Shown here: piece by piece, positions 3,131-21,592 of the stretch | How positions within the stretch are numbered: position 1 is the first letter of the stretch | How the letters are laid out: each line of letters begins with the position of its first letter | Origin: Opitutales bacterium | GTDB lineage: Bacteria > Verrucomicrobiota > Verrucomicrobiia > Opitutales > PNEW01 | Reading direction: 5' to 3' | Length of the DNA: 32,000 bases | Assembly (NCBI GenBank): GCA_965219535.1 | Contig: CBDCNV010000002.1 | Span: 1,860,001-1,892,000, forward strand | The notes under the pieces: generated by a model | The model's input: the letters and a program-made list of their open reading frames with translations, nothing else | Told to the model about the DNA's origin: nothing | The model's database searches: none | Translations under genes and position numbers: made by a program

Positions 3131-3169
3131 ATTAATATTGCTATTGAAGAAGACAGAGAGCGTGATTCA
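3131..3169. repeat. 39-nt repeat, copy 2
   Basis: Matches 1218-1256. It ends 2 nt before the left end (TGGCGTGACC) of the decayed IS3 element. Confidence 0.6.
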
Positions 3170-3496
3170 GTGGCGTGACCGCCGAGGACTGGACCATTGC
3201 CAGAGAGAGTCTTTCCGTAAATAAGAACGGAAAGACGAATGAAACAGAAAAGACACAACGCCGAGCAGCTCATAGCAATCCTGCGCGAAGTAGACAGCGC
3301 CAGAGGTATTCAGGAAGTCTACCGTGAGCACAACATCAGTGCTCAAAACTACCATCGCTGGCGAAAAAAATATGGCAAGATGGACCTACGCAATGCGAGG
3401 CGGCTAAAGGAACATGAAGGCGAGAACACGGAACTGAAAAAGATGTTAGCCGAGCAGATGTTAAAGAATCGGGTATTGGAGGAAGTGAATAAAAAA

Positions 3497-3526
3497 TACC
3501 GAGTCGCATAGCGACGACATCTTCCA
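3497..3526 (+). repeat. Short TACCGAG-type insert (30-31 nt) inside the A-run frameshift site of the decayed IS
   Basis: The sequence AATAAAAAA[TACCGAGTCGCATAGCGACGACATCTTCCA]ATGGTAAGC corresponds to the uninterrupted TCAAAAAAATGGTGAGC in the other IS copy. It contains the small hairpin GTCGC-ATA-GCGAC. Confidence 0.7.
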
Positions 3527-4172
3527 ATGGTAAGCTCGTCTCATAAGCAAGAAGCGGTCAAGCATGTGGTAGCCCAGGGGTTTTGCTCGTTGCGTCAGGT
3601 CTGCAGGTATCTTGGGCTCCATCGCTGAACTTATCTCTACGAGTGCAAGCGAGAATCTTATGGTACTCAGACAATGGTGAGACGAATCATTAGACTTTCA
3701 AAGGTACATTCGCGTTATGGCTATCGTAGTATTCGTGCCCTAATGGACAAAGAGGGGTGGAAGGTAAGCCGTAAAATCGTGCAAAAAGTGCGAAGCGCTG
3801 AAGGGCTTGGAGTGAAAACCCTCTCGTCGCCGACAGAGACGACGAGGGCACTCTACTGGGCTCCCTACCCAAACAGTAAAGCCGAACCATGTATGGAGTT
3901 GGGATATTGTTGCCGAGCGCACCGATTGCGGAGGACAACTGCGGATGATGACTTTAATCGATGAGCATACTCGTCAATGCCTGGCCATAAAGGTATCTCG
4001 TTCGCTCAAAAGCAAAGACGTGGTGGAAGTCTTAGTCGAAGCTATTGAAGAGTATGGCAGACCCCAATGCATCCGCTCCGATAACGGTTCGCAGTTCGTA
4101 GCACAAAAAGTCAGAGAAGCACTCCTCAAGTGCCAGAACGACATTATCTACATCGACCCTGGCAGTGCTTGG

Positions 4173-4217
4173 CTACCGAGCGAAGCGACACCTCAACGAA
4201 CGATAGCGAGAATAACA
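4173..4217 (+). repeat. Short TACCGAG-type insert (45 nt, in frame, no stop) in the decayed orfB
   Basis: PGSAW[LPSEATPQRTIARIT]NGHVESFH corresponds to PGSPWQNGFIESFH in the other copy. The nucleotides are CTACCGAGCGAAGCGACACCTCAACGAACGATAGCGAGAATAACA. Confidence 0.7.
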
Positions 4218-4257
4218 AACGGCCATGTTGAATCCTTTCACAATCGACTGCGTGACG

Positions 4258-4294
4258 TACCGAGGAACGCAGTGACGACATAGCGAAGCACTCA
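4258..4294 (+). repeat. Short TACCGAG-type insert (about 37 nt) in the decayed orfB
   Basis: CGTGACG[TACCGAGGAACGCAGTGACGACATAGCGAAGCACTCA]TGCTTAAACCAGGAGTGG corresponds to RLRDECLNRE in the other copy. The insert introduces a TAG and a frame change. Confidence 0.7.
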
Positions 4295-4842
4295 TGCTTA
4301 AACCAGGAGTGGTCTCTAAGCGTTACCGAAGCGCGTGTTGTCATCCATGCGTGGAAGCAAAAATACAATACCTATCACCCTCATAGTCGTTTAGGCTTTC
4401 TCTGTCCCAACGCTTTTGCCAAACTCTGGCAGCAACTCAATCCAACAGGTGCTGGCTCCACTCGGCCTACGGCCTCCCTCCGCCAGCATCTGCTAAACCA
4501 ACAACAGACAACCCACGGAATGGCTCTCACTTAACTTGGTAGTAATTATGGGGTACAATCAATAAATATAATATGACAGTTATTCTTGAGCTGGAGTGAC
4601 CCCCAAAAATCGTATCATTTACAGAGAGAGGTTATCGGGATAAACAGATAACCTCAATGAAAAGAAAAAGATACACAACAGAACAGATTATAACAATATT
4701 GCGGCAAGCCGATACCGGTAAAACGGTACAGGAAATCTGCCGTGGAAACAACCTGAGCGAACAGACTTTCTATCGCTGGCGTAAAAAATATGGCAATTTA
4801 GAACTTGCCGATGCGAAGCGATTTAAAGAGCTGGAAAAAGAA

Positions 4843-4872
4843 TTCACGAGCGCAAGCGAGAAGGCCTGACAT
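4843..4872 (+). repeat. Short insert (30 nt; TTCACGAGCGCAAGCGAGAAGGCCTGACAT) in orfA of IS copy A
   Basis: It is absent from the paralog, which reads KEHEGENTELKKM. It has one in-frame TGA at 4867-4869. Positions 4846-4862 are 16/17 identical to 3639-3655 of the decayed paralog. Confidence 0.7.
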
Positions 4873-4937
4873 ACCGAGCTGAAGAAGCTGCTCGCAGATC
4901 AAATGCTCAAGAATCAGGTAATGGAGGAAACGCTGTC

Positions 4938-4944
4938 AAAAAAA
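4938..4944 (+). promoter_or_regulatory. Putative programmed -1 ribosomal frameshift site (A AAA AAA) joining orfA and orfB
   Basis: A run of seven A lies immediately before the orfA stop (TGG TGA). The orfB frame is -1 and its ATG overlaps the run. This arrangement is classical for the IS3 family. Confidence 0.6.
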
Positions 4945-5909
4945 TGGTGAGCCCAAAGCAGAAGAAACGAGTAGTAAAAGCTGCGGCTGAGAAAGGGTTG
5001 TGCTCGTTGCGGAGGGCTTGTGCTTATCTCAGCCTGAGTTGGTCAACGTTCAGTTACCGGCCCAAACAGGCCAGTGAGAAAGCTCAGCGGTTGGTCGAGC
5101 GGATTGTGAGCTTGTCCTGGAAACATCCCCGCTACGGTTACCGGCGCATCCGTGCCTTGCTGGTAAAGGAAGGCTGGACAACAAGCAGGAAGTTTGTCCA
5201 GGCGGTACGACGTTCAGAAGGGCTGCAGGTAAAGCCCCCGAAAAAGGGCAGACACCGTCAAGGAGTCTCTACGGGGTCACCTACTAAAGCAAAGGGTCGC
5301 AATCACGTTTGGTCCTGGGACTTTGTCCATGATCGTACAGACAACGGCGGTCCATTAAAGATGATGACTCTAATCGATGTACCGAGGAGCTGAAAGCGAC
5401 GACACTCAAGCGAAGCGAAGACATATACGCGTAAATGCCTGGATATCCGGGTCGCTCGTCAACTCACCTCAACCGATGTCCTCTCTGTGCTTAGCGAGGC
5501 CATTGAAGAGGAGGGACCTCCCAGCTATATCCGTAGTGACAACGGCAGTGAGTTCATTGCTCATCAAGTGCAGCAGTGGTTGTCCGGTAATAACATAAAG
5601 GCGATCTATATCGATCCGGGCAGTCCCTGGCAAAACGGTTTCATCGAGTCGTTTCACAACCGCTTACGCGATGAGTGTTTGAACCGTGAAGTGTTGCTCA
5701 GCGTGGCTGAAGCGCAAGTGGTAATCGAACAATGGCGTCAGACCTATAACCATGAACATCCCCACAGTCGTTTAGGCTTCAAAAGCCCACAAGAGTTTGT
5801 CAGATTCCTTTCCGATCTTGGCCGCGTTCGGGCTACGCCCTCACTTCGCCAAGATCTCTCATATACATCAATCCTAAAACCATTAACACCCGGTAACTCT
5901 CTCACTTAA
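4944..5909 (+). pseudogene. IS3-family transposase OrfB (rve/DDE integrase core), interrupted as read by an in-frame 45-nt insert carrying TGA
   Basis: Motifs RYGYRRIRALL, HVWSWDFV (first D), then MMTLID[VPRS*KRRHSSEAKT]YTRKCLDIRVARQLTSTDVLSVLSEAIEEEGPPSYIRSDNGSEF (second D) and NGFIESFHNRLRDE (E). The flanks at 5376 and 5424 are in the same frame. Confidence 0.7.
5379..5423 (+). repeat. Short TACCGAG-type insert (45 nt) in orfB of IS copy A
   Basis: The sequence is G-TACCGAGGAGCTGAAAGCGACGACACTCAAGCGAAGCGAAGAC-A. The paralog reads MMTLIDEHTRQCL without it. It has one in-frame TGA at 5391-5393. Confidence 0.75.
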
Positions 5910-6393
5910 ATTGGTACGAAAAACGGGGTCCGATCACACCTAGGGCTCTGGTAAACAACCAACTTGAGAAACAGTATGTTGACGGCTTAAGGGTTTTTCC
6001 CCAGATAAGCCGTGACCAAAAAGAAAATAAATAGCGTTTTCTTGAAACCAACCTGTATGCCTCTTCCGAACATCTGGCAAACAGTGGTAGTTTGCGGTAT
6101 AACCAATAACCCAACGGTTTATGTGCTGAGTATTGCTTAAATTTAAAAATGGCTTTCGCGCCAAAGAATACCTGGCCTTCAGTATCGATAAAGTGTATCG
6201 CCTCTTCGAAGTGTTCGCGGGGGATTTCGGAAAAACGATTGTCTAGATCCTGAAATGGCTGAATTTCAACAATATTATCAGTTTTAACCCGCCATCTAGC
6301 GATCCATCTACTGCAGAATTCGCATTCACCGTCATAGATAAGAATGGGGCGATTAAGGTGAAGATTAGATAATCTTGAATAATTAAATGTCAT
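5902..6393 (-). CDS. DCC-family thiol-disulfide oxidoreductase (DUF393), with its 3' end running into the IS
   Basis: The N-terminus ILIYDGECEFCSRWIARW carries the DUF393 CxxC signature. The last 11 codons and the stop (5902-5936) are encoded by the right end of IS copy A, so the native C-terminus is replaced. Confidence 0.7.
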   Translation of the reverse strand: MTFNYSRLSNLHLNRPILIYDGECEFCSRWIARWRVKTDNIVEIQPFQDLDNRFSEIPREHFEEAIHFIDTEGQVFFGAKAIFKFKQYSAHKPLGYWLYRKLPLFARCSEEAYRLVSRKRYLFSFWSRLIWGKTLKPSTYCFSSWLFTRALGVIGPRFSYQFK

Positions 6394-19307: not shown

Positions 19308-19655
19308 TTTATACGCAACTCCTTTAATGCCCGCCTGACGTCCCAATAAGTCACTTCATCAGAAGACCTAATATAGGAGGAAAGTAACGATTTGTCACAT
19401 ATATTATTAATCATTCTGGGAATGCCTTTACTTGCATTATAAACTTTCTTTAAAGCCGGATGAGTAAATCGCGGACGACCTTCACTCCCTGCGAGTGTTA
19501 ATCGGTGATGAATGTATCGCTGCGTATCTTCATAATTTAGCGATTCGAGATTATAATAAACTAAGATTCTCTGCCTTAGCTGTCTTAAGCGGTTCTGAGA
19601 CAATTTTTCTTTCAGCTCGGGTTGCCCTTGATCGGACCCCGTTTTTCGTACCAAT

Positions 19656-20621
19656 TTAAGTGAGAGAGTTACCGGGTGTTAATGGTTTTAGGATTGATGT
19701 ATATGAGAGATCTTGGCGAAGTGAGGGCGTAGCCCGAACGCGGCCAAGATCGGAAAGGAATCTGACAAACTCTTGTGGGCTTTTGAAGCCTAAACGACTG
19801 TGGGGATGTTCATGGTTATAGGTCTGACGCCATTGTTCGATTACCACTTGCGCTTCAGCCACGCTGAGCAACACTTCACGGTTCAAACACTCATCGCGTA
19901 AGCGGTTGTGAAACGACTCGATGAAACCGTTTTGCCAGGGACTGCCCGGATCGATATAGATCGCCTTTATGTTATTACCGGACAACCACTGCTGCACTTG
20001 ATGAGCAATGAACTCACTGCCGTTGTCACTACGGATATAGCTGGGAGGTCCCTCCTCTTCAATGGCCTCGCTAAGCACAGAGAGGACATCGGTTGAGGTG
20101 AGTTGACGAGCGACCCGGATATCCAGGCATTTACGCGTATATGTCTTCGCTTCGCTTGAGTGTCGTCGCTTTCAGCTCCTCGGTACATCGATTAGAGTCA
20201 TCATCTTTAATGGACCGCCGTTGTCTGTACGATCATGGACAAAGTCCCAGGACCAAACGTGATTGCGACCCTTTGCTTTAGTAGGTGACCCCGTAGAGAC
20301 TCCTTGACGGTGTCTGCCCTTTTTCGGGGGCTTTACCTGCAGCCCTTCTGAACGTCGTACCGCCTGGACAAACTTCCTGCTTGTTGTCCAGCCTTCCTTT
20401 ACCAGCAAGGCACGGATGCGCCGGTAACCGTAGCGGGGATGTTTCCAGGACAAGCTCACAATCCGCTCGACCAACCGCTGAGCTTTCTCACTGGCCTGTT
20501 TGGGCCGGTAACTGAACGTTGACCAACTCAGGCTGAGATAAGCACAAGCCCTCCGCAACGAGCACAACCCTTTCTCAGCCGCAGCTTTTACTACTCGTTT
20601 CTTCTGCTTTGGGCTCACCAT
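19656..20621 (-). pseudogene. IS3-family transposase OrfB of copy B, same 45-nt in-frame insert
   Basis: Mirror image of 4944-5909 with identical translations. Confidence 0.7.
20142..20186 (-). repeat. Short TACCGAG-type insert (45 nt) in orfB of IS copy B
   Basis: The reverse complement is identical to 5379-5423. Confidence 0.75.
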
Positions 20622-20627
20622 TTTTTT
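20621..20627 (-). promoter_or_regulatory. Putative -1 frameshift A7 run of IS copy B
   Basis: Mirror of 4938-4944. Confidence 0.6.
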
Positions 20628-20692
20628 GACAGCGTTTCCTCCATTACCTGATTCTTGAGCATTTGATCTGCGAGCAGCTTCTTCAGCTCGGT

Positions 20693-20722
20693 ATGTCAGG
20701 CCTTCTCGCTTGCGCTCGTGAA
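20693..20722 (-). repeat. Short insert (30 nt) in orfA of IS copy B
   Basis: The reverse complement is identical to 4843-4872. Confidence 0.7.
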
Positions 20723-21592
20723 TTCTTTTTCCAGCTCTTTAAATCGCTTCGCATCGGCAAGTTCTAAATTGCCATATTTTTTACGCCAGCGATAGAAAGT
20801 CTGTTCGCTCAGGTTGTTTCCACGGCAGATTTCCTGTACCGTTTTACCGGTATCGGCTTGCCGCAATATTGTTATAATCTGTTCTGTTGTGTATCTTTTT
20901 CTTTTCATTGAGGTTATCTGTTTATCCCGATAACCTCTCTCTGTAAATGATACGATTTTTGGGGGTCACTCCACCCGAGCATAATGATCTGCAATAGTTT
21001 TTGCTTGTCTGTTTCCAGATTGGAAAGCAGGCGCAAGTGTTCCATTGTTTCAATCGCTAAATTTTGTGATTCGTCGATGATGAGGACAATATCTTTTCCT
21101 GCATGGATGCGATCAAGGAGCACGCGGTTTAGATGATCAATAAGATCAACTCGGCTGCTTTCCTGAGCCATTTCTGTTTCTCCCAACTCCATTAGTATGG
21201 CTTTAAGAAGCTCTGTTTCGCTTAAACGAGGATTAAGAATGAGCGCAGTTTCATAGCGCTCCGTATCTATTTCATTAAGTAATTTTCGACAGATAGTGGT
21301 TTTGCCACATCCAACTTCACCCGTTAGGACAATAAAACCTTTTTTCTCTTCAATCCCGTATAGTAAGTGAGACAGAGCATCCTGATGAGTCGCACTCAGG
21401 AAAAGAAACTTGGGATCGGGACTGATATTAAAGGGCATCTCCCGCAGACTGTAGTAACGCTGGTACATTAAGCATTAAATAGATTAACAATCTATATATC
21501 AAAAAAAAAGCGATTAGAAAACAGCAATGTGCTTTTTTCTTCTCATACGCTATCTTAAATGTTATAATAAAATCCCAAGAAGTAAATTGGCG

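Follow-up and report, generated by a model that had tools for sequence, protein, structure and literature searches.

The DNA analysed here, referred to as the window and numbered from its first position, is a stretch of 32,000 nucleotides (nt) from an Opitutales bacterium (Verrucomicrobiota; assembly GCA_965219535.1, contig CBDCNV010000002.1, positions 1,860,001 to 1,892,000). The subject of this work is a family of 24-45-nt hairpin-bearing insertions that interrupt the transposase genes of the IS3-family insertion sequences (IS) found there. Copy 1 (3171-4561, forward strand) is decayed and is recognised by its full-length alignment to copy 2, its TG...CA ends and its orfA and orfB fragments; it carries inserts E, C and D. 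Copy 2 (4592-5936, forward strand) carries inserts F and A and has an inverted twin at 19629-20973 on the reverse strand, with which it forms an inverted repeat of 1345 nt that is 100% complementary. Both host copies belong to IS3, as the Pfam domains HTH_Tnp_1, HTH_21, rve and rve_3 are found on the called genes, and likewise on a related reconstructed copy, together with the family hallmarks: an orfA (helix-turn-helix) and an orfB (rve DDE domain), an A7-run frameshift site, and the ends TGG...TCA.

Aligned with each other, copies 1 and 2 are 76% identical on average and differ by exactly five long one-sided segments. Insert E, of the short type described below, occupies the A-run frameshift site of copy 1 (3497-3526) and is missing from copy 2. 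Also in copy 1, insert C (44 nt, 4174-4217) replaces the AR (R being a purine) of the Gln codon in W-Q-N-G, and insert D (37 nt, 4258-4294) the AG of the Glu codon in R-D-E-C-L-N. In copy 2, insert F (29 nt, 4843-4871) replaces the AA of an Asn codon in orfA, and insert A (44 nt, 5380-5423) the AR of the Glu codon that follows M-M-T-L-I-D; all five lie on the forward strand. The twin, being 100% identical to copy 2, holds inserts A and F on the reverse strand at 20142-20185 and 20694-20722. A sixth site, B, lies in the Glu codon of D-N-G-S-E-F and is empty in the window's copy 2.

These five segments are those that an initial annotation, made from the letters alone, had pointed out, and several of its claims held on closer analysis. 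The segments are related to one another (nhmmer E-values down to 2e-10 with a family profile), and the pattern TACCGAG-N(3-30)-WAGCGA gives seven overlapping matches at five places in the window, every one of them within IS copies, against 0.08 matches expected from shuffled windows, seven being reached in none of 100 shuffles. The elements break the transposase frames by in-frame stops or frame shifts; insert A, for instance, contains an in-frame TGA, and at least 22 contigs in two ENA assemblies encode the open reading frame (ORF) that it truncates. If both inserts of copy 2 are exchanged for AA and AG, the copy encodes an 88-aa OrfA and a 307-aa OrfB. No insert was found in the window's other genes or elsewhere outside its IS copies. 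The remaining TACCGAG matches of the window lack the rest of the motif.

The segments are derived insertions. Their boundaries were refined from empty alleles found in other loci fetched for comparison (designated by L numbers), except for E, whose boundary comes from the comparison of copies 1 and 2 only, as no direct empty allele of this site was found among the fetched loci. A search with the reconstructed insert-free OrfB retrieved full-length proteins of 306-307 aa, 91-94% identical, and at the three loci of the best match (L104-L106) the A and F sites are both empty, these IS copies holding no other long insertion relative to copy 2. The empty allele of site A in these intact copies is ATCGATG-AA-TATACG, and that of site F is GAAAAAGAA-AA-TACCGAG in L005, L007 and L104-L106. 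Site C is empty (TGGC-AG-AATGG) in the IS1-like copy of L059, an 85-94% identical relative of copy 1, while insert C is found at the same site in the IS2-like copies of L046, L019, L013 and L059; a counterpart of insert D, identical at 35 of 37 positions, sits at the homologous site of IS2-like copies, for which the empty allele is GATG-AG-TGT. With empty alleles at four of the five places and intact homologues, the view of the initial annotation that independent insertions had struck non-homologous positions is borne out. Moreover, IS copies that match copy 2 at 99.9-100% when the inserts are disregarded vary in the set that they carry: F and A in the window, L001, L006 and L010; A and B in L005; and F, A and B in L002-L004, L008 and L009. 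A relative 98.4% identical to copy 2 (L007) has A, B and D, and copies at 89-94% identity have B only, B and C, F and D, or A, B, C and D. The differences among near-identical copies point to recent activity.

About a dozen filled/empty pairs give one and the same signature, in which an A-R dinucleotide is replaced, N-AR-T becoming N[T...CA]T. Direct empty alleles back this exchange at A (empty GATG-AA-TATA, filled GATG[T...CA]TATA), B (AGTG-AG-TTCA), C (TGGC-AG-AATG), D (GATG-AG-TGTT) and F (AGAA-AA-TACC), as well as at further sites outside the window: the frameshift run of another IS3 lineage, on the opposite strand (TTAC-AG-TTTT, 13 empty copies), a terminator-like hairpin loop in Pelagicoccus (ATGG-AG-CATT), a tRNA 3' end on the reverse strand (CGGG-AG-TCGA), a tRNA-Ser D-loop copy (GTCG-AA-TGGG), the T-loops of tRNA 3'-end copies (TTCG-AA-TCC) and a CCCTGAA heptamer repeat (CCTG-AA-CCCT). 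The replaced pair is mostly preceded by G and followed by T, and left flanks vary (TG, CG, GG, GC, AC, AA). None of these pairs shows a target-site duplication, and neither end, T[A/T]CCGAG... or ...CA, is an inverted copy of the other; the family therefore has neither of the two features that define miniature inverted-repeat transposable elements (MITEs), and the inserts have no coding capacity. The initial annotation had placed three of the inserts inside NAA codons, with the first base kept, a T at the start, a C at the end and a single A thereafter: the ends were correctly read, and are better put as A-R replaced by T...CA, but the target is not the NAA codon. It is the A-R dinucleotide, struck irrespective of codon phase (for instance at positions 2-3 of GAG or positions 1-2 of AAT) and in non-coding DNA too. 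The net length changes amount to +27, +31, +35, +42 and +42; removal of the element cannot restore the frame.

Members of the family were collected by a scan of one genome per species and an nhmmer profile search, which together gave dozens of distinct members with E-values down to 2e-10. Their common architecture comprises a head T[A/T]CCGAG(GA), a small covarying hairpin, a core GAC(GAC)A and a tail with CA as its last two letters; members agree at the left end and vary at the right, and indels within the family are not multiples of three. The long type (33-44 nt), which includes inserts A, B, C and D and the tRNA-linked copies, reads T[A/T]CCGAGGA, hairpin 1, GACGACA, 0-5 nt, A-GCGAAGC, 0-7 nt and CA. 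Insert A is thus TACCGAGGA-GCTGAAAGC-GACGACA-CTCAA-GCGAAGC-GAAGACA, and insert D is TACCGAGGA-ACGCAGT-GACGACA-TA-GCGAAGC-ACTCA (E = 5e-9 against the family profile). The short type (24-35 nt, with about 20 distinct relatives bearing GACATCTTCCA-like tails) consists of TACCGAG, a hairpin of 1-6 bp and (C)GACATCTTCCA or a near variant; it includes insert E, TACCGA-GTCGC-ATA-GCGAC-GACATCTTCCA, for which folding as DNA predicts a 5-bp hairpin (z = -2.4). Insert F is a member too, though a divergent one: it has the head TTCACGAG, the hairpin motif GCGCAAGC and the end ...GACA.

Hairpin 1 of the long type occurs as GCGCAGC, GCGAAGC, GCGTAGC, ACGTAGT, ACGCAGT, ACGAAGT, ATGCAAT and GCTGAAAGC, and covaries between GC..GC, AC..GT and AT..AT, and the stems of the short type include GGC..GCC, CC..GG, TCCCG..CGGGA, TCCTG..CAGGA and TCGC..GCGA. 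A stem of at least 2 bp is present in 15 of 17 long-type and 12 of 19 short-type variants, and the observed pair count was reached by none of 2000 shuffles. The loops are mostly G-N-A, the GC-GNA-GC type predominating, so that both the invariant GCGAAGC and hairpin 1 correspond to the d(GCGNAGC) mini-hairpin. This is exceptionally stable as DNA (melting temperature of 76.5 C, nuclease resistance), and GCGNAGC/GCGNNAGC motifs occur in single-stranded DNA replication origins (PMC13037366). Nearest-neighbour folding predicts the longer stems of the short type (z about -2.4 to -2.6); for the long type, the 2-bp mini-hairpins are supported by covariation and by the published DNA data.

The family is concentrated in the order Opitutales. 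Its carriers are two long-read metagenome-assembled genomes (MAGs) with dozens of copies, Pelagicoccus mobilis KCTC 13126 and another Pelagicoccus isolate, and Puniceicoccaceae, Lentimonas, Ruficoccus and Opitutaceae MAGs; a few copies are present in Woeseiaceae (Gammaproteobacteria). The window is 94.7% identical over 1.7 kb to one Opitutales MAG. Matches in high-GC genomes lack the head and the hairpin and were set aside as chance-like. A phage origin was rejected, since viral contigs gave 0 long-type matches and 12 short-type ones that have no hairpins and look chance-like. No dispersed family copies were found in the plasmid database. A plasmid of Tolypothrix sp. PCC 7601 (NZ_CP064890.1, 35616-35649; L119) and four sister plasmids hold, as a single copy each, a hairpin loop, GTACCGAGCGCAGCGACGGTAAAGCGAAGC, beside mobC in the putative origin-of-transfer region, which by eye is 27/30 identical to a composite of short- and long-type elements and hints at a relaxase-type (HUH) substrate.

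As to genomic context, copies occur in several IS3 lineages, in an IS5-type gene (DUF772 and DDE_Tnp_1; two genomes, same codon), in an IS66 gene on the opposite strand, in an IS3 left end (L021), in the T-loop or D-loop of partial tRNA copies next to real tRNA genes, in hairpin loops, in a CCCTGAA heptamer repeat, and in a MITE-like palindromic repeat of roughly 190 nt with a nested short-type copy in each arm. All identified protein-coding targets are transposases of three families (IS3, IS5 and IS66), and no intact single-copy gene with an insert was seen among the fetched loci, which are mostly insert-selected. The statement that the inserts lie only inside transposase genes is therefore true of the window but not of related genomes, where the tRNA copies, hairpin loops, heptamer repeats and palindromes indicate that the family is not transposase-specific.

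The T-loops of tRNA 3'-end copies are occupied in at least six loci of two phyla. Units beside tRNA genes are built of an inverted T-arm copy, a short loop, the 5' half of the T-arm, the insert and the tRNA 3' end (L015 6750-6990, L043 4340-4470 and L045 260-360, all on the reverse strand, L037, L052 and L094 4460-4620; in Woeseiaceae, L023, L092 and L067). L015 has two such units of 110 nt in tandem, and the two arms covary, as in the GAATC/GATTC of L094. A close relative of the window has a T-arm/insert unit after tRNA-Gln, and the window has none. The arms of the MITE-like palindrome (L019 5250-5420; L030 4540-4620 and 7660-7740; L008 4830-4900) read GTCATTGCGAGGAG..CGACG..GC-[short-type insert]-TTCCAGGGGG; since the arm itself resembles a long-type element, insertions are nested within relatives. 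A 61-aa ORF of L008 (4767-4952), which starts like a response-regulator receiver domain (MKVYVAEDDDILREMLSSHL...) and has no Pfam match, is broken at this repeat, with the short-type insert on the opposite strand.

Each IS3 site holds its own private variant, which recurs at the homologous site of distant IS3 lineages. These private variants are 91-100% identical across lineages whose flanks are 49-70% identical: insert B is the same at 33 of 33 positions in four lineages with 100-nt flanks in that range (88-93% in one close pair), and between copy 1 and an IS2-like copy, C and D are 91% and 95% identical with flanks of 57-66%. Neutral vertical descent and ordinary gene conversion both fail here; conversion between lineages was rejected because the flanks differ as close as 2-3 nt to the insert and because copy 1 and the IS2-like copy match at only 62% in the 40 nt that separate C from D. 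Short-patch conversion is possible within the IS2-like group, where the nearest lineage-specific differences stand about 33-45 nt from insert B. The use of hot spots is real: the frameshift A-run was struck independently in two IS3 lineages, by inserts of opposite orientation whose hairpins differ. Insert F lies immediately 5' of a native TACCGAG that mimics the family head. A variant related to A, with the same tail and a related head, is present at four unrelated sites in different genera. Chimeric IS3 copies joined exactly at insert B were also observed (L078 3316-4466, reverse strand; L069 around 5023-5051), their left part being IS2-like and their right part of another IS3 lineage, or the reverse; the 33-nt insert common to both parts seems to have served as a bridge for recombination.

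Among the three candidates put forward by the initial annotation, a tiny non-autonomous mobile element fits these observations best, and we regard the following form of it as somewhat more probable than improbable. The elements would be selfish, and an enzyme acting in trans would move them through recognition of the head and the hairpin, a HUH/Y1-type endonuclease being one candidate. The substrate would probably be single-stranded DNA, because the hairpins are of the d(GC-GNA-GC) kind, stable as DNA, and because many targets are loops of potential hairpins, such as tRNA T- and D-arm copies and terminator-like hairpins. Insertions would persist mainly where they are harmless, in dispensable DNA, and would multiply by riding on IS copies mobilised by intact relatives. 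Speculatively, the loss of two bases could arise if element and dinucleotide were exchanged reciprocally.

Several points weigh against such an element. A tblastn search of the 0.96 Mb of fetched loci with IS200 TnpA and RAYT queries returned nothing, although this is a weak test. To our knowledge, a constant loss of two target nucleotides does not belong to the chemistry of HUH, DDE or serine/tyrosine recombinase enzymes. Nearest-neighbour folding fails to predict the 2-bp stems of the long type, for which reason the single-stranded substrate is something that we infer. Most fetched loci were picked by insert-pattern match, and context frequencies are therefore biased. Finally, a simple selfish-element model does not explain the private variants shared across diverged lineages.

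A first rival reading is a directed system. Encoded by the host or by a rival element, such a system would write cassettes into conserved transposase sites and attachment-like tRNA fragments, for homing or for silencing. It would fit the recurrence of one private variant at one site in diverged IS3 lineages (B, C and D), the fact that every identified protein-coding target is a transposase, and the occupied T-loops of tRNA 3'-end copies in two phyla. However, no identity or complementarity of a guide-like kind was detected between inserts and flanks beyond chance, the A-like variant turns up in different genera at four sites unrelated to one another, ordinary intergenic repeats also hold short-type copies, no gene is known to go with the inserts, and survivorship in dispensable DNA can mimic targeting. 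We hold a directed system to be unlikely, and give slightly less credence to its particular form of site-directed homing or programmed silencing, in which a site-specific cassette of 30-45 nt is placed at transposase and tRNA-attachment-remnant positions by an exact two-base swap that leaves the flanks unconverted.

Improbable, too, and to a further degree, is that the segments are filler DNA captured at breaks during repair, with some abundant small nucleic acid, such as a retron-like single-stranded DNA, as the template. Replacement rather than duplication of the target, the conserved left and variable right end, and the complex local structures beside tRNA genes with their inverted T-arm copy would all suit this origin. 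Yet every pair examined has lost exactly A-R, a regularity not expected of end joining, discrete subfamilies whose hairpins covary are maintained from genus to genus, and no source locus was found in the 0.96 Mb of fetched sequence. Nor is there local templating: templated repair from local sequence, another candidate of the initial annotation, finds no support, insert/flank similarity being no greater than chance. A resemblance in circularly permuted order to a transfer-messenger RNA (tmRNA) from Opitutaceae scored 22, against a shuffle maximum of 24-31, and this source was rejected.

The inserts might instead be removed or skipped in expression, as mini-introns, by translational bypass or by programmed DNA excision, the IS copies staying functional. 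This would explain why insert-bearing IS copies are 100% identical at many loci and why the inserts are far better conserved than their flanks. It would also suit an IS3 lineage whose only lesion is insert B (L030, about 100-1350): its OrfA-OrfB is a single open frame of 415 codons once AG stands for insert B, and about 20 filled copies and one empty copy (L054 1539) were counted among insert-B-selected loci. We consider it very improbable nonetheless, since cutting out T...CA leaves the gene two bases short, intact relatives able to act in trans exist, and the same elements are present in non-coding DNA. Bypass was rejected in view of the net length changes and of the lack of matching take-off and landing codons in a manual reading of sites A, B and D. 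Introns, ribozymes and known RNAs were likewise discarded: in Rfam 15, only tRNA and tmRNA reached the gathering threshold and nothing matched the inserts even when E-values as high as 10 were admitted. Folded as RNA together with their flanks, the five window inserts did not improve on shuffled sequences. A hammerhead ribozyme was rejected on a manual comparison with its consensus core, CUGANGA ... GAAA around stem II: the inserts have CCGAGGA-[hairpin]-GAC, in which the equivalents of U4 and A14 are wrong.

Lastly, that the segments are ancestral variable regions of a transposase lineage, a check by which the initial annotation might have failed, has a negligible chance of being right: several lineages do share the same segment at the same place, but empty alleles with a conserved codon exist at A, B, C, D and F, full-length homologues of 306-307 aa have no insert, and the segments contain in-frame stops or shift the frame. 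The frame ACC-GAG reads T-E-E-R-S-D-D, with B and D differing at third positions; a coding origin was nevertheless rejected, since family members differ in length by numbers that three does not divide and the 'synonymous' changes are accounted for by covariation in the hairpin.

How the selfish-element reading relates to known systems can be seen from a comparison with other small repeats. The small dispersed repeats (SDR) of Nostoc and relatives, which Elhai and colleagues are said to have described in 2008 (Genome Res 18:1484), are reportedly about 21-27 nt long, sometimes hairpin-forming, mobile as judged by presence/absence, grouped in eight families, and nested in other mobile elements and within tandem heptamer repeats. 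They are alike in being very small dispersed hairpin elements, and one copy here also sits in a heptamer repeat (CCCTGAA); they differ, on a comparison by description only, in belonging to another phylum, apparently in sequence, and in not being described in transposase frames or as replacing a fixed dinucleotide. IS200/IS605 elements and their miniatures (palindrome-associated transposable elements, PATEs) have no inverted repeats, cause no duplication, bear subterminal hairpins and target single-stranded DNA, and the present family likewise has subterminal hairpins without inverted repeats or duplication. In contrast, the IS200/IS605 miniatures insert 3' of a fixed tetra- or pentanucleotide with no target loss, are at least 100 nt long and have two sizeable hairpins, whereas the family loses two target bases and its left flank is weakly constrained, mostly G. 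The Rickettsia palindromic elements, which Ogata and colleagues are said to have reported in 2000, are also small selfish repeats inside protein-coding genes; at a reported 100-150 bp, in frame and tolerated in functional proteins, they differ from elements of 24-45 bp that mostly destroy the frame. Bypassed segments, such as the T4 gene 60 gap and the 27-55-nt mitochondrial 'byps' of Magnusiomyces, are similar in size range and in position within coding sequence, but have matching take-off and landing codons and leave the gene functional, while the present inserts show no matching codons and also lie in non-coding DNA.

REP and REPIN sequences are non-autonomous 20-40-nt hairpins with a conserved short head, thought to be mobilised as single-stranded DNA by a trans-acting Y1 enzyme, RAYT (TnpA_REP); they are extragenic, usually arranged as inverted doublets, carry a GTAG-type head and reach hundreds of copies (PMC3116915, PMC2817692, PMC6006769). 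A hairpin beside a conserved head is present here as well, but that head is a different one and the elements are single, apart from one palindromic pair in L019, have the head TACCGAG and a defined CA end, and lie in many cases inside transposase reading frames. The statement of the initial annotation that no class of this size was described thus overlooked the cyanobacterial SDR and REP, though neither matches in detail. These two, the latter with RAYT, and the IS200/IS605 miniatures are the nearest known kinds, and none shares the head, the dinucleotide replacement or the transposase-frame habit. Literature searches found the motif or the phenomenon described nowhere; the family is apparently undescribed, and there is a real chance that its mechanism is new.

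Some further features of the window surround the IS copies. The identical inverted copies at 4592-5936 and 19629-20973 flank 13.7 kb of ordinary-looking genes and are a ready substrate for inversion or a composite-transposon-like unit. A 39-nt direct repeat, ATTAATATTGC..GAAGAAGACAGAGAGCGTRATTCA, is present at 1218-1256 and 3131-3169 (87% identical), its second copy adjoining the left end of IS copy 1, and synteny with a related MAG (L089) ends exactly at 3169. The window also contains a tRNA cluster (tRNA-Tyr 188-273, Thr 486-562, Gln 649-722), and in the AT-rich region downstream of it lies a 28-nt inverted repeat (1008-1035 and 1343-1370, 93% complementary, spacing 307 nt) that may be a small MITE.

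The elements would rank with the smallest known pieces of mobile DNA, and the signature of their insertion, a precise two-base replacement with no end repeats and no duplication, matches no described transposition chemistry. The enzyme behind the inserts, once found, could be turned into a compact tool that puts short cassettes into DNA, and site-directed writing, if true, would represent a small-cassette DNA writer of a kind not known in bacteria. For annotation, the inserts explain the fragment calls of many transposase genes in carrier genomes. Identical inserts also constitute portable homology, as the chimeric IS copies joined at insert B illustrate, and, because they inactivate at least three IS families in marine Verrucomicrobiota, the elements have a bearing on the control of IS load in these bacteria.

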